A DNA stretch of 62,377 nt from a virus (Duplodnaviria; Caudoviricetes): the IMG/VR virus record IMGVR_UViG_3300032288_001948, positions 1 to 62,377 of that record, one strand, 5' to 3'. Positions 1,839-35,217 of the stretch are shown here, in pieces (the first letter of the stretch is position 1; the number at the start of each line of letters is the position of its first letter). The notes beneath the pieces were generated by a model. That model worked only from the letters and a program-made list of their open reading frames with translations, searched no databases and was not told the origin of the DNA. Made by a program: the position numbers and the translations under genes.

Positions 1839-2498
1839 CTAGCCGCAGTCTACCTCCCGAATCGGCGGCGGACAACCGTGTGCAAGTTTCCACTTGATGC
1901 GGCTCTTGTAGGCTCGTGCCGTTTTGGGGTTGATGTTCATTTTCTCGGCGACCTCGATCCAGTGGAGCCCGTCCGCAAACAGCCAATACGCTCTGATTAA
2001 CCGTGGGCTGAATGTCTTGCGGCGCCAGTAGCATTTACCCTTCGCCAACGGGATGCTCTTTTCCTCGGCGGCGGCGCGTACCGCATACAGCACGGTCGTA
2101 TGATCCTTGTTGATCCAGCGGCCGATCTTGGAAAGCGTCTGGTGATGTTCCTGATTCAGCCGGTAGCAGAACTCACGACGAGCCACAGCCAGTCGCTTGT
2201 GGCGTTTGTGGCTGACCAGATCATCCGGGTGAACCTTGTGCTCAAGGCACAGCTCGAACATGAGCTGCTTGATCCACTTGGGCATGTTCGGGACATTGAT
2301 CTCGCCGAACTCGGCGGGCGTCTCGATGACATCAATCAGCGGCACGTAACAGTCCGCGGCCTTCGGTTTACGTTCTTTCGGGGGCTTTGGGGGCTTCGGC
2401 AGTTTCGCCGGTTTGAGTTTGATTAATCTTGGTTTCGGCGGCGCCGATCTACGCGGTGCACCAGCATACGGAATTAGATACGCCATCCCATCCTCCAA
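1839..2498 (-). CDS. Protein with DnaA C-terminal (domain IV)-like HTH plus a second C-terminal HTH
   Basis: TLSKIGRWINKDHTTVLYAVR resembles DnaA domain IV (IG..F..RDHTTVxHA); WIEVAEKMNINPKTARAY is a sigma-r4/LuxR-like HTH. Confidence 0.75.
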   Translation of the reverse strand: MEDGMAYLIPYAGAPRRSAPPKPRLIKLKPAKLPKPPKPPKERKPKAADCYVPLIDVIETPAEFGEINVPNMPKWIKQLMFELCLEHKVHPDDLVSHKRHKRLAVARREFCYRLNQEHHQTLSKIGRWINKDHTTVLYAVRAAAEEKSIPLAKGKCYWRRKTFSPRLIRAYWLFADGLHWIEVAEKMNINPKTARAYKSRIKWKLAHGCPPPIREVDCG

Positions 2499-3764: not shown

Positions 3765-4052
3765 TTAGTTTGTCGGCATAGTAGATGGCAGATAAATACT
3801 CATGATTAAGTCACCTTTAACTGACACGTATATCTCCTCCTCGGTTGGCCAGTCTTTTGGCACAACAGCAAGCAACGCTCTCATTGTGCAGTCGATTGAC
3901 GGGGCAGCAATCGTGCCGTCCCGCCACAGCGGGCGTTTAGTCCCGGTGTCGAATCCTGTTGATTCCAGATACTTGGTCAGCCGCGTTTCCATGCGGCGAC
4001 AACGATCAACCACCTCCGTCATTTTCGATTCAAGTTCAAATGTCTCTCGCAT
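3765..4052 (-). CDS. Hypothetical protein
   Basis: 95 aa, TAATG coupling with upstream gene, GGAGG RBS. Confidence 0.7.
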   Translation of the reverse strand: MRETFELESKMTEVVDRCRRMETRLTKYLESTGFDTGTKRPLWRDGTIAAPSIDCTMRALLAVVPKDWPTEEEIYVSVKGDLIMSIYLPSTMPTN

Positions 4053-4915
4053 TACACACCTCCAAACGCGTTCATGAATCCAGACATATCTTCCATGATA
4101 CGCTTGGCCTCGTCAGCCACCATTGTGCGGGTGGCTTTATTCTTACGCAAATCCTTGGGCGCATAGCCCACGACAGTGCGCGCAATATCCTCGGTGATAG
4201 CAGTCAGCTTCGGATCATCCAGCACATTGAGCGCCGGCAACAACTCGACCAGCTCCTCAAGATTCTGAACAGTCGAGTCGCGGAAGATGTCGTCGGTGGA
4301 CATCTTAGCGGCGAAGTGACCCAGCACCGTGGACAGTCGAGTCCACACATCACCCATTGCACGAGAGATGCGGGATTGCATGGCGCGCTCCATCTCGTCA
4401 CGCACCGCACGTTCCTCGGCCTCGCTTGACAACTGCACCCGGAAGTCATTGGCCTCGGTCACAGCATCAATATCCAAGCTGATATAGAACTTGCGATGCA
4501 GCTCGTTAGCCGATGGATAGTCTGACGGATTGAACAGATCACCCATACGGAAGCTGGCTTGATCACGGGCCTTGGGATAGCCCACGTTCAAGAATGTATC
4601 GACCGCCGCATAGAACTCGCCTTGCAGTTTGCCGTGTTCCTCGACGAAGTTCTGATACATCTTGCGGGTCAGCAGCCGATCACCGTTGTCCTTCCACGGC
4701 AATGTCTTGTCGTAGAAGTGATTGCGGACAGCGCCGGCAGCAGACACGATGGTCTTGAGCGACTCTTTAGGAATCAGGTGTTTATTAACACGCGCCGCAT
4801 CAGTCTCGGCGCCAGCATCGTTGGTGACCTTGGCCGACGCAGACTTGTCGAGGCGATAGCCCATCCACACGCCGATCTGGAGATTAACAACCATGCAGTC
4901 ATTGACGATAGACAT
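4052..4915 (-). CDS. DUF3150-like protein
   Basis: N-terminal NLQIGVWMGYRLD..., HLIPKE, TLPW pattern recalled for this family; next to AAA and VWA genes. Confidence 0.6.
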   Translation of the reverse strand: MSIVNDCMVVNLQIGVWMGYRLDKSASAKVTNDAGAETDAARVNKHLIPKESLKTIVSAAGAVRNHFYDKTLPWKDNGDRLLTRKMYQNFVEEHGKLQGEFYAAVDTFLNVGYPKARDQASFRMGDLFNPSDYPSANELHRKFYISLDIDAVTEANDFRVQLSSEAEERAVRDEMERAMQSRISRAMGDVWTRLSTVLGHFAAKMSTDDIFRDSTVQNLEELVELLPALNVLDDPKLTAITEDIARTVVGYAPKDLRKNKATRTMVADEAKRIMEDMSGFMNAFGGV

Positions 4916-4954
4916 TGTATGTTCCTTTCAGTTTGTTAGATTATCTAACAAAGT

Positions 4955-5212
4955 TTAATACGTTAATTGAGCAGCCATGATAGCCGTGTCTACATCTGGA
5001 TATTCTTTCATTGGCTTGACTTCTTGATTCGCGTCCCCTTTCACGTCCAGCACATACCAATGCCCATACCAAGATACAATAGCGTATCGACAATGGGGCG
5101 GACATAATTTTACAAGGTTAATTAAGTCAGTTGACCCCTCATGGTTAATCCACACGACGCAGCTACCGCCGCACACGAACGCCTTGATGATGAGACGCTC
5201 GGGCGCTGTCAT
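4955..5212 (-). CDS. Hypothetical protein
   Basis: 85 aa, ATGA-coupled. Confidence 0.65.
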   Translation of the reverse strand: MTAPERLIIKAFVCGGSCVVWINHEGSTDLINLVKLCPPHCRYAIVSWYGHWYVLDVKGDANQEVKPMKEYPDVDTAIMAAQLTY

Positions 5213-6333
5213 ATCCGCACCACCTGACCGATCGGCACGTCAACCTTGGTCGTGCAGACAACAATCAGCGGATACTCAGGCTCGACGTTCGGCCACGGTG
5301 TATAGCCGTCGGTCACGAGCACAGCGATCTCCGGTTGATACTGGTCGATGTGTTGTAACGGCACACGCATATCAGTTCCTCCACCGCCTTTCGGATCAGC
5401 CTTGATGATGTCGCCGGCCTCGAACTCCTGTTCACCAGCGACCTCGGTGTCAGCCCAAACGAGGCGGATACGTTCGGGATTGACAGCCTCACTAATAGCC
5501 GCGACCTCACTGGCAATACGCGCCAACTCCTGATTAGTAATAGAGCCTGACGTATCGCCGATCACGACAATCTCACCCATACGCTGGCTGTGACGTGACG
5601 GCAGATAAACATCGGTGAAGCGACGGTTACGACGTGACCACGACTCGTTGTCTTTGGTGACACGGGTCATATACTCACGCAGCAAGTCTTGCCACGGCAC
5701 GGTCGGATTGAGTATCTCGTCAACCAGACGCGCCACACCCGCCGGCATCTTGCCGGCCATACGCGCCATGTTGGCAGCTTGAGCAACCTTCTGCTGTATC
5801 TGTTGCTCGGCCTTGGCACGCGCCTCGGCGTCGATGTTTGCAGGTTCACGCACATCTTCGCCCATGCCGGATGTATCTTGGTGCAGATCACCCGGCCCAG
5901 CTTTACCTTCGCCGTTCTGTTTGCGCTTCTTGTTCTCCTTATCCATCTCCTGCTTGAGCATGTCATACACTTGCTCGGCAGACATACCCTTGAATCGCGG
6001 ATCGAACAGACAGCCTTGGATCACCTCGAACCCTGCCTCATGCAGGATCAGATTGATGGCGTAGTCACACGCAATATTCCACAGTTGAGGATTGCGTGAG
6101 CCACGGCGCAAGCCATGCTTGAACACAATGTGCATGACCTCATGAGCCAGCACGAACATGACTTGCGGCAGCGTTAGACCCTCGATGAACGCAGGGTTAT
6201 AGAAGATCGTCAACATATCCGTCGCCGCTGTTGGCAGCGTGGTGTCGACGACCATCGGTGTGGACATGACGAGTGTTGCGAAGAACACTTGCGTCAATAA
6301 CATTTTAGCCTTGGCTTTCTGCATCTTGTTCAT
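5209..6333 (-). CDS. DUF2201-type protein: zincin metallopeptidase domain plus VWA-like domain
   Basis: TAATD, LAHEVMH (HEXXH), WNIACDYAIN; C-terminal DTSGS (MIDAS), GGGGTD, TDG. Confidence 0.85.
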   Translation of the reverse strand: MNKMQKAKAKMLLTQVFFATLVMSTPMVVDTTLPTAATDMLTIFYNPAFIEGLTLPQVMFVLAHEVMHIVFKHGLRRGSRNPQLWNIACDYAINLILHEAGFEVIQGCLFDPRFKGMSAEQVYDMLKQEMDKENKKRKQNGEGKAGPGDLHQDTSGMGEDVREPANIDAEARAKAEQQIQQKVAQAANMARMAGKMPAGVARLVDEILNPTVPWQDLLREYMTRVTKDNESWSRRNRRFTDVYLPSRHSQRMGEIVVIGDTSGSITNQELARIASEVAAISEAVNPERIRLVWADTEVAGEQEFEAGDIIKADPKGGGGTDMRVPLQHIDQYQPEIAVLVTDGYTPWPNVEPEYPLIVVCTTKVDVPIGQVVRI

Positions 6334-6751
6334 TTGCTGATTCCTTTAGTTTAGATGGCATGTCGCTGACAATCGAGGTGCTGATACCTAACCAACCCTG
6401 CACATCTCGCCCGCCGTTCTCATATTTAATGTCGTTATACTCCTCGCCGACCTCGGCATACTCATACGACAATCCCTCGGTGCCGGGTTGTTCGCAGGCT
6501 ATATCGTCGATGATTCGTTGCCATGCGTCGACTTCCTCATAATCAGGATACCACTTGATGCTCTGAACATTCAGGTCAATGACGCTTGTAGCGTGCAATT
6601 CTCGCACACCCTTAACATCATACCGCTTAATATCTGTTGCAAACCAGCTATTCACAGCAGCATTGTTCTCAAGTTTGAGCCGAGTCCAGAAAGCCTGAAC
6701 AATGTCAGGCTCCCCGTAAATTAAACAGCGCACATCACTTCGGTATCCCAT
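6305..6751 (-). CDS. Hypothetical protein (MGYRSDV start)
   Basis: 148 aa, GAAAGGA RBS. Confidence 0.75.
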   Translation of the reverse strand: MGYRSDVRCLIYGEPDIVQAFWTRLKLENNAAVNSWFATDIKRYDVKGVRELHATSVIDLNVQSIKWYPDYEEVDAWQRIIDDIACEQPGTEGLSYEYAEVGEEYNDIKYENGGRDVQGWLGISTSIVSDMPSKLKESANEQDAESQG

Positions 6752-6787
6752 GTTATTTCCTTTCGTTTTGTTAGACGATCTAACAAA

Positions 6788-7813
6788 TTAGTCAAACACG
6801 ACTTTGAAGCGCTTGGAGAAGTCGATAAACTCCTTGGTGGCGAACAGCTTGTCGTCACGCTTGACAGCCAACTGCCACGCCAGCACTGTGAACTCAGGGT
6901 CGAGACGGCACAGGAACTTGTGGTAGGTGGACACGTTTTTGTTGTCGAGTGAACCAGACACAGCGACAGTGATCGCATACGTCATGCTCGGCTCGTCAGG
7001 CAGCTCGACAGTCTCAGGGTCTTTGAGGATACGCGGCATGTAGTCCTTAACCTTGGCCCACACGTCAACGAAGCCCCAGAACTCAGCGGCAGCGCCATCA
7101 CCAACGGCGCCGGCCATCGCGATTTGTTTGGTGCGATGCGTCATAGTAGTATCTGCGTAATATTTCATCGCCTTGTCCCAAGTGCGGGGCGTGGCGAATG
7201 TCTTGTCGGGCTTGGCCGGATCGAACGTGGACAGCAGCGGCTTGCGGAACTGAATGAACGCAACCCACTCCATCGGCCAACCAGAGATTTGAGCATATTC
7301 ACACGACGCATCGACATCAGTGATCAACTCGATATGTGTGCCACGATTAGCCAACGGCAGAGCCATACGAGACTGAACACCACGGTCGCCGTCACGATTG
7401 GATGCAGCAACGATACGCACATTGGGCTTGAGCACATGTTCGCCGCAACGACGGTCATTGATGATCTGATAGCACGGCGCCTGAACACCCGGATTGTTAC
7501 CGCCGGTGATCTCGTCGAAGAACAGGATGATCAGCTTGTCATCGGGAAAGTTATCATTGCCAACGAACGGCAGCGTTGCTGGCAGGTTCCATACAGTTGC
7601 GCCGGCATCGGCAGTTGGGATGCCACGCAGATCGACAGAATCATACATAGATAGTCGGATGTCGCACAGCACAGCATCAAGCTCGTCAGCAAGCTGCTCG
7701 ACAATAGATGATTTACCGCCACCCGGTTGGCCCCACATGAACACAGGCTCATTGAGGCGGATCGCCACATCACGGATGACTTGCTTGGCTTCGGCTACAT
7801 TGACAGCAAACAT
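6788..7813 (-). CDS. MoxR/dynein-related AAA+ ATPase
   Basis: Walker A GQPGGGKS, DLRGIP, Walker B ILFFDE, sensor AASN, LANR, TPRTW. Confidence 0.9.
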   Translation of the reverse strand: MFAVNVAEAKQVIRDVAIRLNEPVFMWGQPGGGKSSIVEQLADELDAVLCDIRLSMYDSVDLRGIPTADAGATVWNLPATLPFVGNDNFPDDKLIILFFDEITGGNNPGVQAPCYQIINDRRCGEHVLKPNVRIVAASNRDGDRGVQSRMALPLANRGTHIELITDVDASCEYAQISGWPMEWVAFIQFRKPLLSTFDPAKPDKTFATPRTWDKAMKYYADTTMTHRTKQIAMAGAVGDGAAAEFWGFVDVWAKVKDYMPRILKDPETVELPDEPSMTYAITVAVSGSLDNKNVSTYHKFLCRLDPEFTVLAWQLAVKRDDKLFATKEFIDFSKRFKVVFD

Positions 7814-7854
7814 TGGATTATCCCTTCAGTTGTTTGTTAGATTGTCTAACAAAG

Positions 7855-8643
7855 TTATTTGGTTAGCAGGAGATGAGTGAACTCGGTTGTTTTCTTACGC
7901 GACACAACACCACACGTCGCTACACGTTTGCGGGCTTGCCAGTCCAGAGTATTGAAGTCCAGATGCAGCAGATCGCTAACGTGCATGGGCTGACGAGAAT
8001 AATAATGTGGGTTAGACACATAGCTTCGCGTTGCAGGGCTATAGACGTTTGGCACATGCACCGTTGATGGTTGATTTACTTTAGCCTCCTCACTTAACTC
8101 GTTCCATGCCTTGCATGCGGCACGGATTGTGTTGATATGATCCTTCTCGTCTCGGTTAAGTTTGTCCACCTCGGTCACACGGATCGGACATGCGCCGATC
8201 GGCGCCTCATCTGGTGCAGCATAATAGACCTGCGCCGTATTGCGTAAGCGTTTGGGTATGCGCTTATTTCCCTCCTGTTGGTAGACCGGTGACTGGATAC
8301 GCACCACATGGTTGGAGTCGTAGTCGATCCATAACGCTTGCGCGCCTTTGTTATTGAGCCATGATGGTTTGACAATATCACCATCCGGCGTCGTCAGTTT
8401 ATATTGAGTGAGGACACCCGGCCAGCGATGATCGTCGCTGTTGGCGATAGCGATATTCTGCGCCTCATAATGCCGGCGATACTTGGGCTTGTAATAGCCC
8501 TGTGTGACAATGAACTCGCCGGTTTCGAGTTGAATGAACGGCGCATGATAATAGGATCGTGCCGATATAAGTTCGACCTCATTGTAAAACTCTTTGAAGC
8601 GATCCCACTTTTTGGTTGCGTGGTTGAATGGTTCGAGTTTCAT
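7855..8643 (-). CDS. Hypothetical early protein
   Basis: 262 aa, GAAAGGA RBS, flanked by palindromes. Confidence 0.8.
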   Translation of the reverse strand: MKLEPFNHATKKWDRFKEFYNEVELISARSYYHAPFIQLETGEFIVTQGYYKPKYRRHYEAQNIAIANSDDHRWPGVLTQYKLTTPDGDIVKPSWLNNKGAQALWIDYDSNHVVRIQSPVYQQEGNKRIPKRLRNTAQVYYAAPDEAPIGACPIRVTEVDKLNRDEKDHINTIRAACKAWNELSEEAKVNQPSTVHVPNVYSPATRSYVSNPHYYSRQPMHVSDLLHLDFNTLDWQARKRVATCGVVSRKKTTEFTHLLLTK

Positions 8644-8681
8644 TTTACTTTCCTTTCGTTTGTTAGATGATCTAACAAATA

Positions 8682-9494
8682 TTAAAACTGGTTAGACAGC
8701 CGGCGCCACTTGTTTGCACTGGCTTGGACGCTGGACACATCATAGCCAGCGATCGACGGCACCTCGACCTTGATGATGCAATTCTCCACTTTATAAATGG
8801 CGTCGCGCACAGCATCAGCCGCACGGTCATGATAGTCGTCGAATATGGCGTTCCAGCCGTCCGGGCCATCACGAAACAGCTCGATCGTCTGCACCCAGCC
8901 GTTGCTATATTTGGGGTCGCGCAAATACCCTTGTCTCATTTGCGGTTGGCCCATCGCCGCACGCGCCTTGACCCATGCTTTGAAGTCATTGAACCCATAC
9001 GCCTTGAGCACAGCGTTAGCCTTGGCGGTATCGACGCGATACTTGATGAACGGGGCGAACATGGCCGGATCGACGGGCAGCCAGTCACCATTATCCGCCC
9101 GCATCAGCCGCACAGAATCACGCGCCATGCGGAACGTCATAGTAGTATTATCCCGCTCTAGATGCAGCAGGTATCCGACCCTGCTGTTGAACGTGGTGCA
9201 GATGCCTGATGGTGTAAGGCTGCGCGCAAACATATCAGTCGATATGGACTCATACGCATTGAGCACGATCGTGCCGTCAGGATGATAGACCACCACATCC
9301 GTGCCATGCAGACGGAAAGCAATCCCGTCGTTGTTAAGCTGGCGCATCGCCATGTGCTTTTTGTTGCGACCAGCGATCGGGCGCGTGTTGGTATCGCCGC
9401 TGCCACGCCACGGGTCAGTCTTGCCCCAGTAATTGAGCGCATCGCTGTAGCAGCGAATCGGTGGGATCGAGTAGGTGTCGATGTGAAAAGCCAT
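8682..9494 (-). CDS. Hypothetical early protein
   Basis: 270 aa, GAAAGGA RBS. Confidence 0.8.
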   Translation of the reverse strand: MAFHIDTYSIPPIRCYSDALNYWGKTDPWRGSGDTNTRPIAGRNKKHMAMRQLNNDGIAFRLHGTDVVVYHPDGTIVLNAYESISTDMFARSLTPSGICTTFNSRVGYLLHLERDNTTMTFRMARDSVRLMRADNGDWLPVDPAMFAPFIKYRVDTAKANAVLKAYGFNDFKAWVKARAAMGQPQMRQGYLRDPKYSNGWVQTIELFRDGPDGWNAIFDDYHDRAADAVRDAIYKVENCIIKVEVPSIAGYDVSSVQASANKWRRLSNQF

Positions 9495-9506
9495 GTGATA
9501 TTCCTT

Positions 9507-9728
9507 TCAGTTTGTTTCAGGTTCGTCCACACCGCCATGTGTGGCGATGTAATCGGTCAGGTCGAGCAGGGTCTGCGTCAATGTCTTACTGAACCCTGCC
9601 ACAATGATGCGTGACTTGAGTATCTCCAGCATGTCCGGTGTCGAGTGCATATCTGTCTCGACAATGAAACGTAACAACTGATCGAACGCAATCAGCGCAC
9701 GTTCGTGGTCTGTGAACCCAGCAGCCAT
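9507..9728 (-). CDS. Hypothetical protein
   Basis: 73 aa, GAAAGG RBS directly after a palindrome. Confidence 0.7.
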   Translation of the reverse strand: MAAGFTDHERALIAFDQLLRFIVETDMHSTPDMLEILKSRIIVAGFSKTLTQTLLDLTDYIATHGGVDEPETN

Positions 9729-9747
9729 GTGCTACCTTTCTGTTAGA

Positions 9748-9867
9748 TCATCTAACAAACATGAGGATGTCGAGCATTGTCCACGCTGTGACGAACGTGA
9801 TGAACAGCATGGACACGAACACGGCGCCGGCGCCGATGATTTGAATAGAGATGGGTGCGTCATTCAT
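9748..9867 (-). CDS. 39-aa transmembrane peptide
   Basis: Manual translation MNDAPISIQIIGAGAVFVSMLFITFVTAWTMLDILMFVR*; GGAG RBS; stop lies inside a palindrome. Confidence 0.6.
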   Translation of the reverse strand: MNDAPISIQIIGAGAVFVSMLFITFVTAWTMLDILMFVR

Positions 9868-9871
9868 TTGT

Positions 9872-10102
9872 TTACTCCACAGTTGGTTCATGAAAGTCAG
9901 TGGCGTCGTCGAGCACCGGCTTGTCGAGCGCCTTAATCAGTCGATCGGTTAATTCTTTCAGCTCATCCATAGTGTCGCCATGATAGAATGGCTCACCATA
10001 GCTAAACGGCAGCTTGGTGCTGTCGTCGTAATACACCTCGGCGAACATATAGAGCGTCTCACCTGCCTCGGTCTTACGCACAACGCGATGATTCCAAAAC
10101 AT
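9872..10102 (-). CDS. Small phage protein (WNHRV...EVYY type)
   Basis: MFWNHRVV..AEVYYD; AAGGAG RBS. Confidence 0.7.
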   Translation of the reverse strand: MFWNHRVVRKTEAGETLYMFAEVYYDDSTKLPFSYGEPFYHGDTMDELKELTDRLIKALDKPVLDDATDFHEPTVE

Positions 10103-10112
10103 GGTTGTCTCC

Positions 10113-10319
10113 TTAGAACGGCATGTCATGTGTTTGGTTTAACCCCAGTTGCAGTCTGGTCATGCGAATCTCATAGTCCAGCGCCACGAGGCGCGGGCCA
10201 TCCTCAAGCCACTCGGCGTCTATGAAGTCAGCTTCCAGACGCTTGAGCTTGACGTTAAGTGGCTCGGCCTGAAACGCCGGGCTCGTGTAGTCGATCGGTC
10301 TGATGTGCGATTTACTCAT
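10113..10319 (-). CDS. Hypothetical protein
   Basis: Operon packing with neighbours. Confidence 0.6.
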   Translation of the reverse strand: MSKSHIRPIDYTSPAFQAEPLNVKLKRLEADFIDAEWLEDGPRLVALDYEIRMTRLQLGLNQTHDMPF

Positions 10320-10527
10320 TGTCTTTTTTCCATTCATCTGTGCCATGCTCGTTTACATACTCAATCAGGTCGGTCAGCATGATCCACACCCGATAGGATA
10401 TGCCTGATGCTTTGAGGCGATGGTTCAGCGCCTTGATCGTGTCGCCGTCAGCCAGCTCCGTCGAGCACATGGCCCTGAGAAGCTGGTCATACAGCACAAT
10501 CATTTCCTCATCCTTTGTATAGCTCAT
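10312..10527 (-). CDS. Hypothetical protein
   Basis: 71 aa, GGGGAG RBS, ATGA coupling. Confidence 0.65.
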   Translation of the reverse strand: MSYTKDEEMIVLYDQLLRAMCSTELADGDTIKALNHRLKASGISYRVWIMLTDLIEYVNEHGTDEWKKDNE

Positions 10528-10754
10528 AGGATTGTGCTCCCCTTATAGATGCCGATCAAAGCCCGGCGATCCATCGCACGGGTGTAGCCCTGCTTCGGGC
10601 CGGCTGGCACGATCGTCCAGCGTGAACGCTCTGTCGCCGCCATCATGTCCCCACACTTGAGGCATGTGTCATAACCCAGATGAGCGCGCCGGGCTGGATA
10701 CGGCTCGTCACAAACAGTGCAGTGATATTGGATGATACGTTTACCAGTGCTCAT
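10524..10754 (-). CDS. Small C4 zinc-finger protein (DksA/TraR-like spacing)
   Basis: CTVCDEPYPARR...TCLKC; GAAAGGA RBS. Confidence 0.65.
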   Translation of the reverse strand: MSTGKRIIQYHCTVCDEPYPARRAHLGYDTCLKCGDMMAATERSRWTIVPAGPKQGYTRAMDRRALIGIYKGSTIL

Positions 10755-11064
10755 GGTTTGTCCTTTCGTCGTTTGAGGTGGGCGGTTTTGTTGGATCATG
10801 TCGCTTCGCTTCCATTCCCAACTTTGTTAGACAATCTAACAAACATAAAAGTTTTAATAGATGAATGAGTGGATGAATATATAAATGAACGCGCGGTGGC
10901 GGGACGCTACCCCCGCCACACGCAGTAATCACCAGTCGAGGGGCGGTCGACGCCCAATCGAATGGCTTAGACATATTCACGGTGATAAACAGCACACAGC
11001 GGTTTGATAGATGATCTAACAAACTGGATGGACGCGTCACGCGCAGCACCCGACTGATAGCTAA

Positions 11065-11093
11065 AGACTAGCATATAAAGGTTTGATTGTCAA
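11065..11093 (-). promoter_or_regulatory. Sigma70-type early promoter
   Basis: Minus strand TTGACA-17 nt-TAGTCT with TG at the extended -10 position. Confidence 0.7.
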
Positions 11094-11252
11094 GTTAAAT
11101 CTTTTGATTACAACCATGAAGTTTTAGCGCGGATTAGTGCTGGTCGATGGTCAAATTACCACGAGTTTATAGGATGATTGCATGGTGTAGGCGGATTATA
11201 TGCGGAATAGGCGACTTATATTCCTAATAGTCAAAAAATGGATTTATGTAAG

Positions 11253-11452
11253 TTATTGTAATCGGCCCAAATAGACAGGTAGTCAACTTTCAAACTAGTA
11301 TGAACGATTTTTACTGGAAAACGCGTTATATTTTCGTGATGTTAATGGTTGATGCAATACGCCGGTGGCGCACAAAAAATAAAAAAACCTTGTTTATATT
11401 TATTTTTATATGGATATTCTGACTACCTGTCTATTTCGGCCAATATCAATAA
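11253..11452. repeat. 33-bp inverted repeat pair (11253-11285 / 11420-11452), 134-bp spacer
   Basis: 29/33 identity; perfect 17-bp core AAATAGACAGGTAGTCA. Confidence 0.85.
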
Positions 11453-11577
11453 GTTCTGGTATGTCAACATAGGCAACTGGTCTAAAAGCACCGCCTTTTG
11501 GTAGACTAATCCTGTCTTTTCGTGGCAATAACAAGCACTTGTGGTTTTGTTAGATCATCTAACAAAATTCCGTGACT

Positions 11578-11638
11578 TTAATAGGTGTATCCTGTCAACA
11601 TATTAATAGGTGTAAATTTATAAAGTTTTAATAGGTGT
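11578..11638. repeat. Three direct repeats TTAATAGGTGT with exact 25-bp period
   Basis: Copies at 11578, 11603, 11628. Confidence 0.85.
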
Positions 11639-11750
11639 TATGTTTGCGTGCGTTCGAAAGCACCTAACTACTATGCCGAGATTTGATTGAGGCATGTGCG
11701 CGATTGATTCGCGCGCTGCATCTGTTTGATTAAATGTAAACATATAGGCA

Positions 11751-11780
11751 AATAAAAAGGGGCGCTCTCGCGCCCCTCTC
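11751..11780 (-). terminator. Rho-independent terminator
   Basis: GGGGCGC-GAGA-GCGCCCC-TTTTTATT after the 11785-12411 gene. Confidence 0.8.
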
Positions 11781-11784
11781 TGGA

Positions 11785-12411
11785 TCATTCGCAATTCGCA
11801 ATCTCGGCTTGCGCTGCGGCAAGCGCCACGGTTAGCGCCTTCACGAAAGCCGCGCTGGCTTGCGGCTTTACGATCGACAAAAGCGCCGCGAGATTTTCCC
11901 GTGCAAACATTGCCGCTTCGCGCGCCGTGGCCGGCTTATAGTCAACGCCAATGGCCGGCTTTTCGGCTTTCGCCTTTTCAGGCTTGGCCGGCGTCGCAGC
12001 CTTGGCCGTTTCCACCTTGGCCGTTTCGGCTTCCGTCTTGCGACCGGCGTTGTCGCGCTTGCCGCCGCGCTTATCAGTCGCGACTAGCCCGGCTTCCTTC
12101 CTAATGTGAAAGGCATAATTGCGCGCGGCGCTTGCCGCTTTGTCATACCATGTCGCGCGCGCTTTCGCGGCTTTCGCCTTTTCAGCCGCGACCATGCCAA
12201 GCGCGGTTTTCGCGTTGCCGCCCTTTACATTGGCGATAACGTATTGAACCATGCGCGCGCCCCAAAGCCACACTTCCAATTCGGCAATCGCCTTCTCGCC
12301 CTTGCAGGCTTTGGCGCGAGCGATAACCTTGCCGCGCGCGTTGCCTTCCGCGTGCACGAGCGCAACGTCGGCGGCATGAGCGGACATGATCGCGAGAAAA
12401 TCATTAGACAT
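11785..12411 (-). CDS. Ala/Lys-rich monocistronic early protein
   Basis: 208 aa, GAAAGGA RBS, own terminator, palindrome upstream. Confidence 0.8.
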   Translation of the reverse strand: MSNDFLAIMSAHAADVALVHAEGNARGKVIARAKACKGEKAIAELEVWLWGARMVQYVIANVKGGNAKTALGMVAAEKAKAAKARATWYDKAASAARNYAFHIRKEAGLVATDKRGGKRDNAGRKTEAETAKVETAKAATPAKPEKAKAEKPAIGVDYKPATAREAAMFARENLAALLSIVKPQASAAFVKALTVALAAAQAEIANCE

Positions 12412-12694
12412 TGTTTTATCCTTTCATAATTAAATCATCATTTGATGACCCTCATATTGAAATATACTTTTGTTAGATTGTCAAACAAAACTTATGCGCC
12501 CGGCCCTATATAAAGAATTCTTGCCACCCCCACCCCACCCCCCCAAGGGGTTTGCGCCGATTGCTATAATACATATTCATGGTCATCCATATATTTTTTA
12601 GAAATTTTTCCATAAATAAAATTCCATGACTTTATACGTTGATACCTCCCCACACCTTCAACTCTAAAAAATTTTTTATAAAATTTAGCCAAAA

Positions 12695-12723
12695 TTGACA
12701 TCGGCCCCCGTCACTCGTATTCT
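12695..12723 (+). promoter_or_regulatory. Sigma70-type promoter for the structural operon
   Basis: TTGACA-17 nt-TATTCT preceded by an AT-rich UP-like tract; GGAGG RBS and ATG at 12745. Confidence 0.75.
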
Positions 12724-12744
12724 TCAAAAAACTCGGAGGCTTAA

Positions 12745-13119
12745 ATGGCGAACTCGTCGCGTGTCGTGGCTGAACTGAAGCTGCGTTGTTTTTATGCTCG
12801 TGACGAAGCGCATAGCGCTCATTTGACGACAACGTCTTATGCCCAGCACATGGCGCTCGGAGCTTTTTATGACGAGATGCCTGATTTGGTCGACAGTCTG
12901 GTTGAATCGTATCAGGGCATCTACGGAATCGTGGAAGATAAACCCAACGTCACGATGCCGGCTGGCGGCATGGTTCCGATTTTGACTCAGCTCCGCAAGT
13001 GGATCATGGCCAACCGCGACAGTGTTGGTATATCGGACGACACCGAGCTTCAGAACGACATCGACTCGATCGTGACGCTGATCAACCGCACCATGTATAA
13101 GCTGAAGAATCTGAGATGA
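12745..13119 (+). CDS. Ferritin/Dps-like four-helix protein (DUF5856-like)
   Basis: AHLTTTSYAQHMALGAFYDE..DSLVESYQG, ELQNDID...YKL. Confidence 0.7.
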   Translation: MANSSRVVAELKLRCFYARDEAHSAHLTTTSYAQHMALGAFYDEMPDLVDSLVESYQGIYGIVEDKPNVTMPAGGMVPILTQLRKWIMANRDSVGISDDTELQNDIDSIVTLINRTMYKLKNLR

Positions 13120-13559
13120 CCGATCTGACCGTTCGACCGACAGCGAATGTGAATCCGGACAACCCGTCCGAGATCGAGATTTACCCGCCGACGTTGCCGC
13201 TTGAGGTGGCGTTGAAGACGGCGTCGGTCAAAGATATTTGCGAGGCGTACGGCCTGTCGAAAGACGAGTGGGAAAAGCTCAAGGTCAACCCCATGTTCGT
13301 CCACGAGGTGGCGGCGTATCGCGATGCGCTCAAGAAGGACGGCGGTATGTCCTTCAAGATGAAAGCCCGGCTGCAATCAGAGGAGCTTCTGAAGACCAGC
13401 TGGCGGATGATCCACGACCGGAGCGGTGACGTGTCTCCGCAGGTGCAGGCGGACTTGATCAAGTTCACCATCCGGGCGGCGGGTTTGGACGGAAGCAAAG
13501 ATCAGGCGGCACAAGCCGGGCAACAGAACGCGCTTCAGATCAACATCAATCTTGGATAG
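13116..13559 (+). CDS. Putative terminase small subunit
   Basis: HTH-like N-terminal half, C-terminal beta strand LQININLG, upstream of TerL. Confidence 0.55.
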   Translation: MTDLTVRPTANVNPDNPSEIEIYPPTLPLEVALKTASVKDICEAYGLSKDEWEKLKVNPMFVHEVAAYRDALKKDGGMSFKMKARLQSEELLKTSWRMIHDRSGDVSPQVQADLIKFTIRAAGLDGSKDQAAQAGQQNALQININLG

Positions 13560-13569
13560 GAGCAGGACA

Positions 13570-13821
13570 ATGGCGTTTGGGATGATGGCCCCGAAGGGCA
13601 AGATGCCGATGAAAAAAGGCCCGGGCAATCCGGCGAATACGAAGGGCGGCAAGAACGCCATTTCGATGAAGGGCAACAACGAGAAAATGCCGGGCGGCAA
13701 ACAGGCCGGCGAGTACACCAAGAAGCCTGCGCCGAGCGACGCCCCGATGCGCGCTGTGAAAGCGCTGCCGGCTAAGAGCAAGGGCAAAGTTCCGGCGCCG
13801 TTCAAGAAGGGCGCTAAGTGA
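13570..13821 (+). CDS. Small basic K/G/P-rich protein
   Basis: AGGA RBS; composition. Confidence 0.6.
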   Translation: MAFGMMAPKGKMPMKKGPGNPANTKGGKNAISMKGNNEKMPGGKQAGEYTKKPAPSDAPMRAVKALPAKSKGKVPAPFKKGAK

Positions 13822-14027: not shown

Positions 14028-14308
14028 TGGCTAAGACTCGGCACGGCATGGTGAAGTCACCCGCGTGGCAGCGCTCAGAGGGCAAGAACCCCGAGGGCGG
14101 CCTGAACGCCAAAGGTCGCGCGTCGGCCAAGAAACAGGGCATGAACCTGAAACCGCCAGCGCCGAATCCCAAGACCAAGGAAGACGCCGGGCGGCGCAAG
14201 TCGTTCTGCGCCCGGATGTCCGGCATGAAAAGCAAGCTCACCAGCGCCAAGACGGCAAATGATCCGGATTCGCGGATCAACAAATCGCTACGAGCGTGGA
14301 ATTGTTGA
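14024..14308 (+). CDS. Conserved basic phage protein (RRKSFCARM type)
   Basis: GGLNAKGRAS...RRKSFCARM...PDSRINKSLRAWNC. Confidence 0.75.
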   Translation: MMAKTRHGMVKSPAWQRSEGKNPEGGLNAKGRASAKKQGMNLKPPAPNPKTKEDAGRRKSFCARMSGMKSKLTSAKTANDPDSRINKSLRAWNC

Positions 14309-15745: not shown

Positions 15746-17917
15746 ATGATCACGACTGACATCAAAGGCCCGGCCTCGGCGGCAGCGGAACAAATGCCCC
15801 CGGACGTCATGGTGAATGACCCTGAAACGGCGCCGGTTCCGGTGATTCGGTCAGAGGAGCTGCGCCAGCTTGGCCAGAACCTCGACAAGCTGTTCATGCA
15901 GTACGTGTCAGATCGACGCATCGCGGAGCTGAAATGGCTGAGAAATCTACGTCAGTATCTCGGGCTGTACGACCCGGAGATCGAGAAGGAGATGTCGGTC
16001 AACCGATCGAAGGCATACCCGCGCATCACACGCGTCAAATGTATTTCGGTCCTGTCGCGGATCATGAATTTGATGTTCCCCGGCAACGAGCGCAACTGGC
16101 AGCTTCAAGCGTCTCCGTCACCGGATATGTCTCCGGAAGACGTGATGCAGGCGATCCAGACGCTGATGCAAAAGGCCCAAGAAGCCGGGCTGCCGCCGGC
16201 GCTGAGTGATGAGATGGTCAAGAGCGCTGTTCAGAATCTGGCGAATGACCGGGCTGAACTCCTGTCAGTTCTGATCGATGACCAGCTTCAGGAACTGGGC
16301 GGGGATCAGACGCTCGACTACGTTTCGCTTGCGCGCAAGGTCGCGCAGTCAGGTATTCTGTACGGCCTCGGCGTCCTCAAGGGTCCGTTTGTGCGTACGG
16401 CGCAGACAACGCGCTGGCAGTTTGACCCGGTGACGCAGATGCCGATGCCGGTGACGCAGACGATTTATAAGCCGATGTTTGAGTTCATGCCGATCTGGGA
16501 CTTCTACCCGGATATGTCGGCCAAGACGTTCGCGCAGATGGACGGCTATTTCAGCCGGGTTGTCATGTCGCGCTCGCAGATTCGCGCTCTGGCGGATCGC
16601 CCGGACTTCTTCCCCGACCAAGTGAAGCAGTACCTGAAAAATCACCCGCAGGGGAATTATCGCCCGCAGCCGTTCGAGACGGAGCTGCGCGCCATGGGCG
16701 TCAAGGTCAACGTCAATGAGATGAAATCGGAGACGACCAAGTACGAGATTCTGGTTTGGAATGGCCCGGTTGGCGGGCAGTTCCTACAGATGGCTGGCGT
16801 GGATGTGCCGGAAGATAAGCTGGCGGACGACATCGACGCCGAAGTCTGGATGATCGAAGGCAACATCATCAAAGCGGACATGAACCCTTGGCGAAAGATC
16901 GGGGCGGACGTAAAGACCATTCACACATTCCTGTTCGACGAGGACGACACAAGTCCGGTCGGGAATGGCCTGCCAAATGTTGTCCGGGACTCTCAGATGT
17001 CGATCAGTGCCGCCACGCGGATGCTGCTGGACAATGCAAGCGTCGTCTGCGGGCCGAATCTGGAGTTAAACACAGACCTCCTGCGCCCCGACCAAGACTT
17101 GACGTCGACTTCAGCTTACAAAATTTGGTACCGGGAGGGCACTGGCCCGGATGCGATGCAGCCGGCGGTGAGGAATCTTGCGATTGACGCGCATCTCGAC
17201 GATCTGCTGAAGACGATCGAGCTGTTCATGAAGTTCGCAGATATGGAAACTTTCGTCGGTCCGGCGACCGGCGGCGATATGGAACGGGGCATGAGTGAGC
17301 CGATGCGTACGGCGGCTGGCGCCTCCATGTTGCGCGGTGACGCGGCTTTGCCGTTCAAAGATATCATCCGTAACTTTGATATTTTCACGCAGTCGCTGAT
17401 CAACTCGCTGGTGCAGTTCAACCGCAAGTTCAATCCTGATCTGGCGCCGGAAGGTGACTATAACGTGCTTGCACGTGGCGCCACCTCGCTGATCGCGAAG
17501 GAAGTTCGCGGGATGCAGGTCGACCAGTTGGCGGCGACGCTGACCCCGGCCGAGGCGATGCACATTGACGAGCGCAAATTGATCGAGGCGCGCGTCAAGG
17601 TTCGCGACCTTGGTGATCTGTTGGTGCCGGCGGATGAAGCGAAACGTCGTCAGCAGCAGGCGTCTCAGGCGCAAGAGATCATGCAGCAGCAGCAGGCTGA
17701 GCAGGTCGCGGCCAACGTCCGTAAGACACTTTCTGACGCGTATAAAAATATTGCTCAAGGCCAGAAGAACACAGCCAATGCTGAAGCTGCGACCATTCAG
17801 GCCGCGCTAGACATTCTGGAGAAGGGCGTCGAGCAGGAGGTCAGCGGTGAAGGTGGATCGGAGAACAGCCCAAGCGGAGCTGGTGAAAGCAATTCAGGAG
17901 CGGGCCGGAACGTATGA
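15746..17917 (+). CDS. Portal protein
   Basis: ~720 aa directly after TerL; podovirus portal-like features (WDFYPD, RTAAGASML, Q-rich tail). Confidence 0.85.
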   Translation: MITTDIKGPASAAAEQMPPDVMVNDPETAPVPVIRSEELRQLGQNLDKLFMQYVSDRRIAELKWLRNLRQYLGLYDPEIEKEMSVNRSKAYPRITRVKCISVLSRIMNLMFPGNERNWQLQASPSPDMSPEDVMQAIQTLMQKAQEAGLPPALSDEMVKSAVQNLANDRAELLSVLIDDQLQELGGDQTLDYVSLARKVAQSGILYGLGVLKGPFVRTAQTTRWQFDPVTQMPMPVTQTIYKPMFEFMPIWDFYPDMSAKTFAQMDGYFSRVVMSRSQIRALADRPDFFPDQVKQYLKNHPQGNYRPQPFETELRAMGVKVNVNEMKSETTKYEILVWNGPVGGQFLQMAGVDVPEDKLADDIDAEVWMIEGNIIKADMNPWRKIGADVKTIHTFLFDEDDTSPVGNGLPNVVRDSQMSISAATRMLLDNASVVCGPNLELNTDLLRPDQDLTSTSAYKIWYREGTGPDAMQPAVRNLAIDAHLDDLLKTIELFMKFADMETFVGPATGGDMERGMSEPMRTAAGASMLRGDAALPFKDIIRNFDIFTQSLINSLVQFNRKFNPDLAPEGDYNVLARGATSLIAKEVRGMQVDQLAATLTPAEAMHIDERKLIEARVKVRDLGDLLVPADEAKRRQQQASQAQEIMQQQQAEQVAANVRKTLSDAYKNIAQGQKNTANAEAATIQAALDILEKGVEQEVSGEGGSENSPSGAGESNSGAGRNV

Positions 17918-30800: not shown

Positions 30801-30941
30801 CTGAAGTCGGTTGCGTCTACGATTAAACGACGGCGAGAAGGTCTGGCGTTATCGCGCGCGACTGGGGCGCCGCTTGGAGTCAAACCGCAAGATGTCGGCG
30901 CGCGTGGACTGACAACATATATGAATGTCGACATGCAGTGA
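24807..30941 (+). CDS. Giant internal virion / polyvalent protein (2044 aa) with zincin HEXXH and PLxRFG-like motif
   Basis: TLHEGIHAAT..EFISEAFSNPDF (MPTase-like); NFHLGRFGDY; C-terminal GSLGLPF. Confidence 0.8.
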   Translation: MPFVDENPYFAGAAPQQDATPSREIDFSQYPRFAEQFAAKEAPARGVFGPGLRAGFNELQAMGGAAASALGGAVGYQPLQEWGADVSRANQAEAAKYGRPDLETAPWREGGAGWLPWLGYQAAKQIPLAGATMLGTALFPEAAVPAALSRAGAAVPELLGGGGLRAGMSAAETAAAETAGKQYAKSFLGGSAVNLPVAAGSMYQEAMDRPGGPTQEDAIKALAMAPAYAATEGLGGALGRGIISEAATKGITATVGRAALRSAVEEGPTEAAQTAMELSFRPDMSPAQKASQIVDAALTGAAVGGVFGAAGGGVNAAMNPMRATKDVAPNQLTNDDILNSVDQTLGPLPNAPAQQADTEQVTAPATPSEPAPPPMMAQITEAEAPEAVAKEESAAAAERVEKLQTSVADAMDGGAIAQNVKVVQRVLGDAQSLPDAISKFLDIQDQADQKKGAAAGRLTAAQKKIGSALGITDSDGRPLDIDAEISTLTQQLTAAQTPQARQQITNQIDRLDLIRPVIEEVRASRAAPVESVAPAPEEMLTPPPREAAPATEEAPGARAPAAAPAVTLTAEAEDLLAKGGIPFKVTQNLAKIAKENGIEVKGASGAEAQRIVAELQAIKDSQTAAPATEIPSAIQEQGPTGVYVQPAPETGGAVGEGNAQGGEAPGEGIGAASETQPEVPTTPPSEVAPPAAPAPSPAAQTFMQQQGIKQLSPEERVAARERQKVEEAAFLQKRQAQIRAANAKNAQRGGVTAAPVAPKGMTPEEFLARRNRERPSMGALGEESELDRDISSLVENNASGKQVLDYLGQHGKTEFDRLLAQHLSRLGVSPSMQFEDVNNPDLQLDREQAAGREILGSYNVEQDRINLYSRAGSAQVTLHEGIHAATDRAIRTSSPAAQKLKDVYSEFMARPEQYDRSTPAYDNEAEFISEAFSNPDFREFLKTLQVGPKNLWEKFKDAVFKLLRMPQRARTVFDQVMEVGEPLFQENQQTTMEDVYRAMGEEPINESPFSVNEQLGKIATTLGKVADKFDRTASLGVAARQTILGWNSITHMATRYGKLFTSGGTNWIQKYADYNQERAAVAARMSQLFKNVYDDYKALEKKSAAVAETFRKLMALTEFNIDWRKSWDAQTWLHDQPNSKDLQRLHADMRREGGRLDADTKGLFDRFEAVNNVTRYAQMSLSLYNMIVADPAMAKNIANSDVDPIDEFLQQSSLHENPAEAQTYWRKTLEKQLAAADPFIKAQNRIMRKGATAAERSKARQILQPLSQLVDSTKQTMTVMKQSPNFHLGRFGDYMVTFQIKKDEAGIDADAQRRVAAAMDAAGVQAQLSPENNNPTVFVRVETIEQAKKLQELARDMQKRGWLNPDVEPKAGLRTDSEFRDIANPQWLQKYIEALQSETFEDEGLTGEAAEQAIKNRKQMVQQARELYLNMLPDNALAKVLTERKSIAGYSPDMMRSFAFRHQIGMNTIANLATMHNIAGSLTEMRRIINAAKTGDVQDTVKLQNIFNEISQRETGRSMQPQNSFWDSVRAFNHAYFLGASPSYVLVNMTQPGVLLWPELSKQHGYVNSGKAIASVTPTAFKVMAAVMKVSKSADAIITEKSLKASGVDEATADFIMRVANTGNLDLGSTSRELGRVVDKEMDSRTDQLLRWAAAAGYYSETFTRLSAALAARELYQNKSDTEGMMTYVNKTINESMLNYSSWNTARQMGKMGVAGEYTPVMFSFMTYQAQVLEKMYRELRDAFGGSPEARRFLLSHAAALTVLSGSLGLPFASVAARVFDGLKDAFGDDDEPSDVKSAWRNFLADMFGKEVGEVLARGVPRALGFDVSSRVGEADLAPFSRFLTDRREWRDAAQDMALRTLGSPVSMALNILEGGTQFARGDAIEGLQKMVPNSLKGPIAAYRMAEDGRYVDSKGRELPMEPGAQDVLIQALGFTPQAKAEYQEASMAQTVRKGLLTREGATLRDQLVDAIMDNSADRDRLTQKAVAYDQAHPDRPILKSVASTIKRRREGLALSRATGAPLGVKPQDVGARGLTTYMNVDMQ
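26701..26868 (+). CDS. Nested out-of-frame small gene (MPFKSKAQ type), 55 aa
   Basis: GGAG at 26690 then GTG at 26701; product MPFKSKAQRAYMFSQLPKLAEQWAKETPKGAKLPEKV resembles a small phage protein family I recall. Confidence 0.6.
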   Translation: MPFKSKAQRAYMFSQLPKLAEQWAKETPKGAKLPEKVSGRPQKPNQKSPPPPRQK

Positions 30942-35128: not shown

Positions 35129-35217
35129 ATTAGGTTCTCTCCAGTTTTGCGGTGATCGCGGAGATGATGTAGTATCGTGATGGTAGACTATCAACCGCCT
35201 TTACCGTGGAGTGTCTA

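Follow-up and report, generated by a model that had tools for sequence, protein, structure and literature searches.

Why does one short palindrome recur nine times between the early genes of a single phage, and what might read it? The question is raised by IMG/VR record IMGVR_UViG_3300032288_001948 (Duplodnaviria; Caudoviricetes), which was analysed over its full length of 62,377 bp and is called the window here. A pattern search of the whole-window DNA for TTTGTTAGANNNTCTAACAAA recovered nine copies of a 21-bp palindrome, TTTGTTAGA-N3-TCTAACAAA (9+3+9 bp), six of them perfect and three with one mismatch, starting at 4932, 6767, 7833, 8659, 9739, 10823, 11003, 11546 and 12469. The same nine sites were returned when up to two or up to three mismatches were allowed, 100 dinucleotide-preserving shuffles gave 0 matches and the complete 62,377-bp record holds no further copy, reproducing every count and position of an original prediction made from the sequence alone. 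Comparison with related genomes revealed palindromes at the same junctions with sequences of their own and no selection for base pairing, and we tentatively read the sites as operators in double-stranded DNA. In the order of leftward transcription, the copies are:

Copy 1, 12469..12489: one mismatch; the minus strand reads TTTGTTTGACAATCTAACAAA, containing TTGACA; 57 nt 5' of the ATG of the first leftward gene
Copy 2, 11546..11566: perfect; in a leader of about 1 kb; begins 25 nt downstream of a TTGACA, after three phased ACACCTATTAA repeats
Copy 3, 11003..11023: one mismatch; in the leader, about 40 nt downstream of a promoter-like TTGACA-N17-TAGTCT (our own reading)
Copy 4, 10823..10843: perfect; 23 nt 5' of the ATG of a 91-aa DksA/TraR-like zinc-finger gene
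Copy 5, 9739..9759: one mismatch; its final bases run into the AGAAAGG ribosome-binding site (RBS) of a 73-aa gene (9507-9728)
Copy 6, 8659..8679: perfect; between a 270-aa gene (8682-9494) and a 262-aa gene (7855-8643)
Copy 7, 7833..7853: perfect; between the 262-aa gene and a MoxR-like AAA ATPase gene (6788-7813)
Copy 8, 6767..6787: perfect; adjoins the ATPase stop codon, 5' of a 148-aa gene and a DUF2201/VWA gene (5209-6333)
Copy 9, 4932..4952: perfect; the last copy, 5' of a conserved 287-aa gene (4052-4915)

One copy thus lies over a TTGACA 5' of the first gene, three lie in the non-coding leader and five in gaps between a stop codon and an RBS. At 4932, 6767, 7833 and 8659, the stop codon is separated from the palindrome by 2, 0, 1 and 2 nt, GAAAGGA or GAAGGGA follows directly 3' of it, and the next ATG comes 16, 15, 19 and 15 nt after its end, respectively; at 9739, the stop of a 47-codon open reading frame (ORF) falls within the spacer and the ATG lies 10 nt further on. 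The gene map therefore agrees with the bracketing first noticed for these five junction copies (0-2 nt from the stop codon or with the stop in the spacer, 10-19 nt to the ATG). By our own reading of that map, a copy is present in five of five intergenic gaps of at least 20 nt in the stretch 4900-10800 and in neither of the two 12-nt gaps, and the larger gaps run, from 10800 to 4900, in the order stop, 0-2 nt, palindrome, GAAAGGA-type RBS, ATG. In coordinate order, the plus-strand spacers read TTA, CGA, TTG, TGA, TCA, CAA, TGA, TCA and TTG; complementary pairs are present, matching the claim that both spacer orientations occur, and only the arms are invariant, the central 3 bp being free to vary. 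That the single mismatch of the 12469 copy creates a minus-strand TTGACA is likewise seen in the sequence.

The array (4932-12489) takes up the initial 7.6 kb of the non-structural operon, which runs leftward on the minus strand, with no copies after 4932 in transcription order; all nine lie outside called genes, and the genes flanking them are all on the minus strand. The record has direct terminal repeats, is estimated to be 100% complete and has a GC content of 55%. Its minus-strand block (genes from 12411 down to 1, then on via 62377-49562) encodes the MoxR-like AAA ATPase, a DUF2201 metallopeptidase/VWA protein, DNA polymerase, helicase, primase, a PD-(D/E)XK nuclease and an exonuclease, and the plus-strand genes at 12745-49565 are structural (terminase, portal, N4-type capsid and a 2044-aa DarB-like/PLxRFG protein). 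Pfam and/or PHROGs scans of 49 window ORFs brought up no integrase, repressor, recombinase or RNA polymerase, and the genome has no HTH_3 match, in line with the earlier remark that no cI-like repressor or recombinase is evident. Since integrase, repressor and RNA polymerase are missing from the scanned ORFs, the phage looks lytic and dependent on the host polymerase.

Conserved junctions, lineage-specific sequences

Relatives sharing a syntenic ATPase/VWA core were found by ATPase and VWA protein searches in IMG/VR and metagenomes (labels of the form L0xx or L1xx denote individual contigs or loci). The VWA survey covered the 26 closest loci, from the best 80 of 202 VWA-positive IMG/VR stretches, and the metagenome survey 14 of 60 loci, those with an ATPase identity of at least 47%. 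At the same junctions, each relative has a palindrome of its own, 14-22 bp long and in 4-16 copies; arm sequences number more than 20 overall, and centres measure 0 to 5 bp. A palindrome family was present in 23 of the 26 closest VWA loci (22 plus the quasi-palindromic one of L105); within this set, none was found in L108, and L112 and L128 come without the upstream flank. Among the short metagenome contigs, 10 of 14 showed a repeated or ATPase-proximal palindrome. The families include:

L011 and L012: TTTGTRAAC-N3-GTTYRCAAA
L013 and L122: TTTGTGACA-N2-TGTCACAAA
L014: TYTGCTACA-N3/4-TGTAGCARA
L109: CACGACA-N3-TGTCGTG
L114: TGGGACA-N3-TGTCCCA
L116: GTCACGT-N-ACGTGAC
L117: GAGTCAA-N5-TTGACTC
L118: CGTCAGA-TCA-TCTGACG
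L119: TTACGCCGGCGTAA
L124, L127 and L130: GTGTTACA-N3-TGTAACAC
L050: GATATATCGC-N-GCGATATATC
L046: TTACCGCATGCGGTAA
L105 (quasi-palindromic): TTTGTCAG-N5/6-CTCACAAA

Within relatives, too, arms are conserved and centres variable, for example in L014, L050, L116 and L123. The window and L013 alike have copies before the 262-aa gene, before and after the ATPase gene and before the 287-aa gene; the position of copy 7 (7833) is orthologous in L013, L045 and many metagenome contigs, and that of copy 9 (4932) in L013. By hand count, 15 of 19 related loci have a copy that ends 15-98 nt 5' of the VWA match; its window counterpart is copy 8. Copies were restricted to the non-structural block in all four whole contigs checked, and arrays span 7.7 kb in the contig of L013, 16 kb in that of L014 and about 29 kb in that of L011. 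A motif scan of relatives, set beforehand as a check, gave a divided answer: the exact motif is shared only with the close relative L045 (72% ATPase identity), which keeps the window 21-mer exactly, 5' of its ATPase gene, and the element itself occurs clade-wide with its sequence changed. Sequence turnover does not simply follow relatedness, as L119 and L115 have ATPases 72% identical and unrelated palindromes, and L107 and L122 share a palindrome at 41% ATPase identity. Across the clade, the sites are conserved in position and lineage-specific in sequence.

No match came from a Megablast comparison of 4000-13000 with 50,697 phage records. The nearest named capsid, at 45% identity, is that of Pseudomonas phage Rollin (OR577172), whose genome has five copies of a 25-bp palindrome, AAAAGGTAG-N7-CTACCTTTT, within about 500 bp around the record start (first 500 bp plus last bases) and none at gene junctions. 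The paper on phage StenR_269 makes no mention of repeats (PMC10747016), and no published description of this clade's repeats was found within a literature search of limited coverage. Short dyad repeats punctuating phage operons have been noted before (Cluster O repeats and Cluster K extended start-associated sequences, ESAS); new here is a clade-wide, lineage-specific element at conserved junctions. More than 20 site sequences at the same junctions, including differing ones in close genomes and shared ones in distant genomes, amount to a natural experiment, so that the reader protein should be findable by co-variation and the mechanism testable with swapped sites.

DNA site or RNA hairpin

Dyad symmetry that survives sequence change across whole lineages is compatible with a hairpin and with a symmetric protein alike; variation within genomes separates the two. 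We scored deviations from the consensus at arm pair positions in 55 sites of six genomes. Of 72 deviating pair positions, 4 were compensated, 17 gave G·U and 51 were broken; on the sense strand, G·U was not commoner than A·C (19 versus 22 in 58 sites). Position 6 is mismatched in 10 of 12 copies in L011, and most L105 copies carry a C·C clash in TTTGTCAG...CTCACAAA. Selection for base pairing is absent. Because sequence rather than pairing is kept, centres vary on fixed arms, copies stand at changing distances from the ATG (0-40 nt across lineages) and some copies lie upstream of promoter-like sites (copies 1 and 2 of L013, by our own reading) or right after the first-gene terminator (one copy each in L011 and L013), we read the sites as double-stranded DNA sites.

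These results bear directly on the explanation that the transcribed palindromes act at the RNA level, as hairpins or as RNA sequence 5' of cistrons serving as processing sites, 5' or 3' stabilisers or operators of a translational regulator. Several features would suit such a role. Every junction copy is transcribed with the operon, between stop codon and RBS, and the window copies fold as 9-bp RNA hairpins of about -7 kcal/mol, seven of nine with a z-score of -1.9 or lower. In L011, a Shine-Dalgarno (SD) sequence occupies the site centre in six of six sites with an abutting ATG, versus three of nine other sites, and asymmetric variants in L011, L012 and L105 show a preferred orientation relative to transcription. 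Cluster K start-associated sequences (SAS) and ESAS have likewise been proposed to act in translation initiation (PMC3203893). Against this stand the loss of pairing, including the recurrent central mismatches of L011 and L105, the range of ATG distances and the copies beyond promoter-like sites or terminators. Loops are variable and stems invariant, the opposite of usual RNA-protein recognition, and the stems are too short for RNase III. The whole window gave 0 Rfam matches at gathering score, and at the nine sites intrinsic terminator features were lacking: with G-C at 2 of 9 pairs the stems are not G+C-rich, no U-run follows and none was listed by the scan, in contrast to the terminator-like hairpin at 11750-11776. 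We consider an RNA-level element unlikely; the mRNA hairpins offered as one of three options in the original prediction are disfavoured, as relatives keep sequence rather than pairing. Even if the sites are not operators, the simplest hairpin models are already excluded by the data.

The head of the early region comprises:

11785..12411, minus strand: first leftward gene, 208 aa; its family directly follows the first palindrome in four of four lineages examined
11750..11776, minus strand: intrinsic-terminator-like hairpin, GGGGCGC-GAGA-GCGCCCC plus U-run, directly 3' of the first gene; -26 kcal/mol, z -5.6
10800..11784, minus strand: non-coding leader of about 1 kb (GC 0.479) that holds three palindrome copies and, on the minus strand, several TTGAC(A/T) hexamers; presumed early promoter cluster
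10524-10799, minus strand: DksA/TraR-like zinc-finger gene, 91 aa (Pfam/PHROGs match)

Two copies are placed as operators might be, copy 1 overlapping TTGACA and copy 2 lying at about -4 to +17 of a TTGACA hexamer (our own promoter reading). A DNA operator is supported because some copies stand at operator positions such as these or where transcription of the operon would miss them. We therefore lean, tentatively, towards reading the nine palindromes as an operator/roadblock array, that is, as double-stranded DNA operators for a phage-encoded, two-fold-symmetric, sequence-specific regulator with a specificity that shifts between lineages. Among the three original options, the multi-operator or roadblock array fits best, given the invariant arms, independent half-sites, promoter-side copies and lineage-specific arms at conserved positions; for the binder, it has a candidate only. 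The reader would be a phage-encoded protein dimer and the outcome repression. Such a dimer would bind the palindromes at the early promoter region and at every sizeable early-operon junction, where it would occlude the early promoters as well as set up serial roadblocks to host RNA polymerase, and the immediate-early and early block could be switched off, or its expression graded, as one unit in lytic growth. If the sites are operators, they would represent a multi-site transcriptional switch in lytic phages using the host polymerase, and a source of many orthogonal short operator/regulator pairs.

Candidate readers and rival explanations

Which protein could read the sites? Over 22 genome sets, the core families are the ATPase, the VWA protein, p287, p95, p262 and p270. 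One of them is our lead candidate for the palindrome binder, and only a lead:

3765..4052, minus strand: p95, a 95-aa core protein with a 30-residue N-terminal helix carrying an invariant R-x2-RRIETR, followed by a small beta domain

The protein is present in 19 of the 22 genome sets and was predicted to form a symmetric homodimer, with a score of 0.62 versus 0.00 for the best of three controls; a score of 0.62 was reached by 20 of 30 proteins solved as same-chain pairs and by 1 of 23 solved as single chains. Contacts agreed by at least 62% between runs, and the partner's predicted local distance difference test (pLDDT) value was at least 73. The predicted contacts between the two chains involve residues 50-61 and 73-89 of the C-terminal beta domain and would leave the basic helices free. 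Co-variation gave a single suggestive pair, L129 and L121, with 61% p95 identity against 37% for the ATPase and similar sites. The other core proteins p262 and p270 were tried as readers by co-variation and rejected, as they evolve fast even between genomes sharing a motif and yield no signal. In the comparison of L119 with L115, many unique small ORFs remain as candidates.

The product of the first leftward gene is a possible immediate-early regulator. Its family has 129 relatives at E of at most 0.001 in a profile search, and its AlphaFold2 model (pLDDT 86.3) suggests two all-helical domains joined by a Lys/Ala-rich linker. The model matched nothing in the Protein Data Bank (PDB) at E of at most 0.001 with Foldseek and just generic helical hairpins (residues 155-208, Z up to 7.6) in the VIA wide structure search, and the product had no Pfam match and no ESM Atlas lead above 0.88. 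Helix-turn-helix (HTH) matches are scattered: HTH_3 occurs only in L011 and L012, and a DnaA_C HTH only in the window (1839-2498) and L014. GerE-like matches in the window, at 1149-1403 (84 aa) and 1839-2498 (219 aa), are weak. A comparison of the small early window ORFs with PHROGs and Pfam gave no regulator beyond these two kinds of match and the DksA/TraR-like zinc finger.

A number of these and other observations weigh against an operator array. No DNA-binding family common to the lineages emerged from a Pfam scan of 90 ORFs of L011, L013 and L014 and from family searches. The p95 protein matched no PDB fold and no known DNA-binding fold, its RRIETR is invariant although the sites differ between lineages, and it was not found in the contig of L013, which has 11 sites and is 83% complete. 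The first-gene product was dropped as palindrome binder, having no DNA-binding fold or other pointer. A program scan gave no minus-strand promoter near the palindromes, the hexamers being our own readings. L045 carries, downstream of its ATPase gene, an L013-like imperfect palindrome in addition to the window 21-mer, which is odd for a single specificity, and we know of no tested precedent for a roadblock array in a lytic phage. Finally, a directional or RNA-level role is possible because the element overlaps translation signals and asymmetric variants are oriented, as described above.

Could the protein instead come from the host, as a global regulator or nucleoid protein whose sites the phage has recruited, with lineage differences reflecting different hosts? 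The lack of a common phage DNA-binding family would suit this, as would some likenesses: the L013/L122 core TGTGA-N6-TCACA equals the consensus of the CRP family; TGYNA-N7-TNRCA, a pattern resembling TnrA/GlnR boxes of Bacillales, is fitted by the cores of the window, L011 and L014; and the window core fits the TnrA/GlnR box TGTNA-N7-TNACA. Elsewhere, the exact 21-mer occurs at one site in each of 6 IMG/VR contigs and, among 185,579 species genomes, at one site in each of 28 contigs (L017-L044), 11 of them from Bacillales, and is multi-copy in none; the single-copy Bacillales matches are probably unrelated to the phage. Because the exact motif is multi-copy nowhere else, a host repeat or host regulon box is argued against. 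The variety within one phage clade, with over 20 different arms and centres between 0 and 5 bp long, also speaks against a host protein, as do 55% GC and strong SD sequences, which do not suggest a Bacillales host. Moreover, site sequence departs from core phylogeny in L119/L115 and L107/L122, which suggests that the reader is less a host protein than a phage factor that changes fast or can be exchanged. We regard recruitment of host-protein sites as improbable. Likenesses to the integron core site, LexA, CRP, TnrA, TyrR, Ogr (TGT-N12-ACA) and bZIP-like half-sites are no more than leads and were set aside for misfit in spacing or for fitting one lineage only. Two further explanations start from gene exchange and from the distant relative coliphage N4. 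In the former, the 14-22-bp repeats would be micro-homologies for inserting, deleting and swapping early cassettes. When L011 was aligned with L012, 5 of the 30 alignment ends came to lie no more than 5 nt from the edge of a palindrome (0.43 would be expected for random positions; P = 0.0002), and two gene insertions or deletions of about 300 bp and one replacement begin right at a palindrome; this test is without control for gene boundaries, which the palindromes mark and at which mosaic joints are to be expected in any case, and the remaining 25 ends lie away from palindromes. Strain variants were sought in contigs from public runs X2-X5 (water metagenomes; covered parts only). Among the differences listed, near-identical phages in runs X2, X4 and X5 show a 177-187-nt insertion beside the 8659 palindrome (8640-8658) and a 316-nt replacement of most of the 148-aa gene (6337-6682), and one X3 contig diverges exactly at 12468|12469. 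The insertions are not framed by two copies, that of X2 duplicating the RBS and not the palindrome and that of L011 ending in a plain RBS at its far side. The core genes for the ATPase, the VWA and the 287-aa protein, never swapped, are flanked too, no recombinase was seen in the 49-ORF scan and recombination alone leaves dyad symmetry unexplained. A 3-bp centre is unsuited to known site-specific recombinases, which have a crossover core of 6-8 bp (tyrosine) or 2 bp (serine), and the integron core GTTRRRY is fitted, by GTTAGAT, in the window lineage only. Deletions between repeats were seen by the Cluster O authors (PMC4351075), and shuffling mediated by promoter early stem-loops (PeSL) is documented (PMC2839356, PMC4122927). 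Taken together, the crossover sites of the original prediction keep the indels that start exactly at a palindrome edge and fall short on the recombinase and the coincidence with boundaries; since joints lack two flanking copies, core genes are flanked and palindromes sit at gene boundaries, we take the palindrome-edge changes as a by-product of site position rather than its purpose, and hold module-junction elements to be distinctly improbable.

In the latter explanation, the sites would extrude as cruciform hairpin promoters for a virion-delivered or other phage RNA polymerase. Capsid and ATPase/VWA genes are nearest to N4-like phages among named homologues, an ATG directly follows the palindrome in L011, as a transcript start just past a hairpin would allow, N4 early promoters are phage-specific inverted repeats centred at -11 (PMC4496689), and a role as virion RNA polymerase has been conjectured for the giant StenR_269 protein (PMC10747016). 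The window's 2044-aa virion protein, by contrast, has no Pfam or PDB sequence match and no R-x3-K-x7-YG pattern (motif B), and no other polymerase-sized candidate was found among the ORFs scanned. On the template strand, the central base is not constant (T, G, T, G, C, A, G, C, T), and N4 needs a purine at loop position -11 and G at -10 (PMC4496689). Hairpins are lost in L011 and L105, a perfect palindrome has no direction, and the L011 sites are transcribed, because SD sequences lie inside them. Promoters of the N4 type are very improbable here.

Returning to a phage-encoded dimer on operators, a bolder form seems rather unlikely to us: a strictly lytic freshwater clade with N4-type capsids might possess a diversifying 'operator code', read by a co-evolving dimer of an uncharacterised fold (p95 or another protein) and immunity-like without lysogeny. 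Such a code could, for example, keep a superinfecting phage of its own type from expressing early genes, with escape from a competitor's regulator driving site turnover. Close genomes with unrelated sites and distant ones with a shared site would then reflect exchange of the regulator and conversion of all its sites.

Known phage repeats and further features of the early region

Among described systems, the closest architecture is that of the Cluster O mycobacteriophage repeat, a 17-bp TGTTCGG-N3-CCGAACA with 34 copies in Corndog (PMC4351075). Like the window, these phages have two invariant inverted arms around a variable 3-bp centre without meaningful orientation. Copies are numerous and for the most part sit in short gaps between genes or at the 5' end of a gene, in a leftward non-structural block, and the host does not have the repeat; a dimeric regulator was put forward by the authors, who left the function open (PMC4351075). 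Unlike the window, Cluster O arms are 7 bp rather than 9 bp, copies occur genome-wide and also within genes (10-11 of the 34 sites of Corndog lie in coding regions), a single sequence is common to all five phages, whereas in the present clade the sequence shifts and the positions stay, and the phages are siphoviruses of an actinobacterial host (PMC4351075). Neither the Cluster O sequence nor its genome-wide scatter was found in the window, where the arms differ and copies lie only at 4932-12489, outside genes.

Cluster K repeats are also among the closest precedents. SAS and ESAS are tied to translation starts of non-structural genes at positions conserved across genomes, and ESAS are imperfect inverted repeats with a subcluster-specific consensus and a function left open, as in the window (PMC3203893). 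The SAS, however, is an asymmetric 13-mer containing the RBS, and ESAS have 17-bp arms and a 4-13-bp spacer (PMC3203893), whereas the sites of the present clade are compact (14-22 bp) and, in the window, the RBS is separate, beside the palindrome. Cluster A stoperators resemble the window in having many short sites at promoters and in short intergenic gaps; there, a bound phage protein stops initiation and elongation, and sites and protein co-evolve new specificities (PMC9283540). They differ in being asymmetric 13-mers, read by a monomeric immunity repressor of temperate phages in one orientation only (PMC9283540). The window has dyad-symmetric 21-mers with spacers both ways in a lytic-looking phage, and a partial orientation bias is confined to L011, L012 and L105.

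The PeSL of T4-like phages, a composite of a sigma-70 promoter and a terminator stem-loop, are likewise conserved short intergenic repeats flanking small early genes, and indels between close relatives start at them (PMC2839356, PMC4122927), as some do at the present palindromes. The present sites come without conserved promoter hexamers and without a U-tract and also flank core genes; as the scan listed neither a promoter nor a terminator at the nine palindromes, they are not the PeSL composite. The N4 promoters, read by the virion RNA polymerase (vRNAP), resemble the present sites as short inverted repeats with phage-specific sequences that belong to the early region of phages whose capsid is of N4 type. 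They differ in comprising three sites, a GC-rich heptamer, fixed loop bases and a required vRNAP (PMC4496689), compared with 9-16 sites, variable centres, no recognisable polymerase and pairing that is not conserved.

Further repeats accompany the palindromes. A G-run, GGGGGGGTGGGGTGGGGGTGG, lies at 12524-12544 on the minus strand, just 5' of palindrome copy 1, and L013 has long GGGGCGGGGGC repeats at the equivalent place (4620-4720); judging from these sequences, a G-quadruplex-like tract appears to be a conserved feature heading the early region. The three exact ACACCTATTAA repeats just 5' of copy 2 (11578-11588, 11603-11613 and 11628-11638, minus strand; 25-bp spacing; 0.32 expected by chance) give the early leader what looks like a second family of sites, this one of direct repeats. 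The leader of L013 contains a second palindrome, TAAGACACGACAGTGTCTTA, in two copies (6474-6493 and 6619-6638) and a direct repeat, ATATAGTAGTTTGATGGATGG, in three (5602-5625, 5678-5700 and 6551-6572); this contig also has two first-gene paralogues (4897-5460 and 5868-6356), each with its own palindrome, promoter-like site and terminator. Tandem arrays occur in the early regions of L105 (5169-5802, a 15-bp unit in about 29 or more copies) and L108 (809-1385, 72-bp period).

In the early region of the window, two small paralogous proteins of 71 and 73 aa (10312-10527 and 9507-9728, minus strand) share DQLLR...LxDLxxYxxxHG and have no family match, and the second follows palindrome copy 5. L011 encodes small paralogous early proteins ending in P-x-DWPD-x-V...A four to five times (9281-9316, 13375-13410, 13692-13727, 14180-14215 and 17350-17399), and multi-copy small paralogues are found in L115 and L119, too. 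In the structural block of the window, the 2044-aa virion protein (24807-30941, plus strand) has its DarB-like/PLxRFG matches over the C-terminal half (residues ~1155-2028) and a HEGIH (HExxH) motif at residues 879-883 (27441-27455), in the otherwise unmatched N-terminal part. On the opposite strand within the same block lies a homing-endonuclease-like gene (34325-35194, minus strand; phrog_314, E 1.5e-17).

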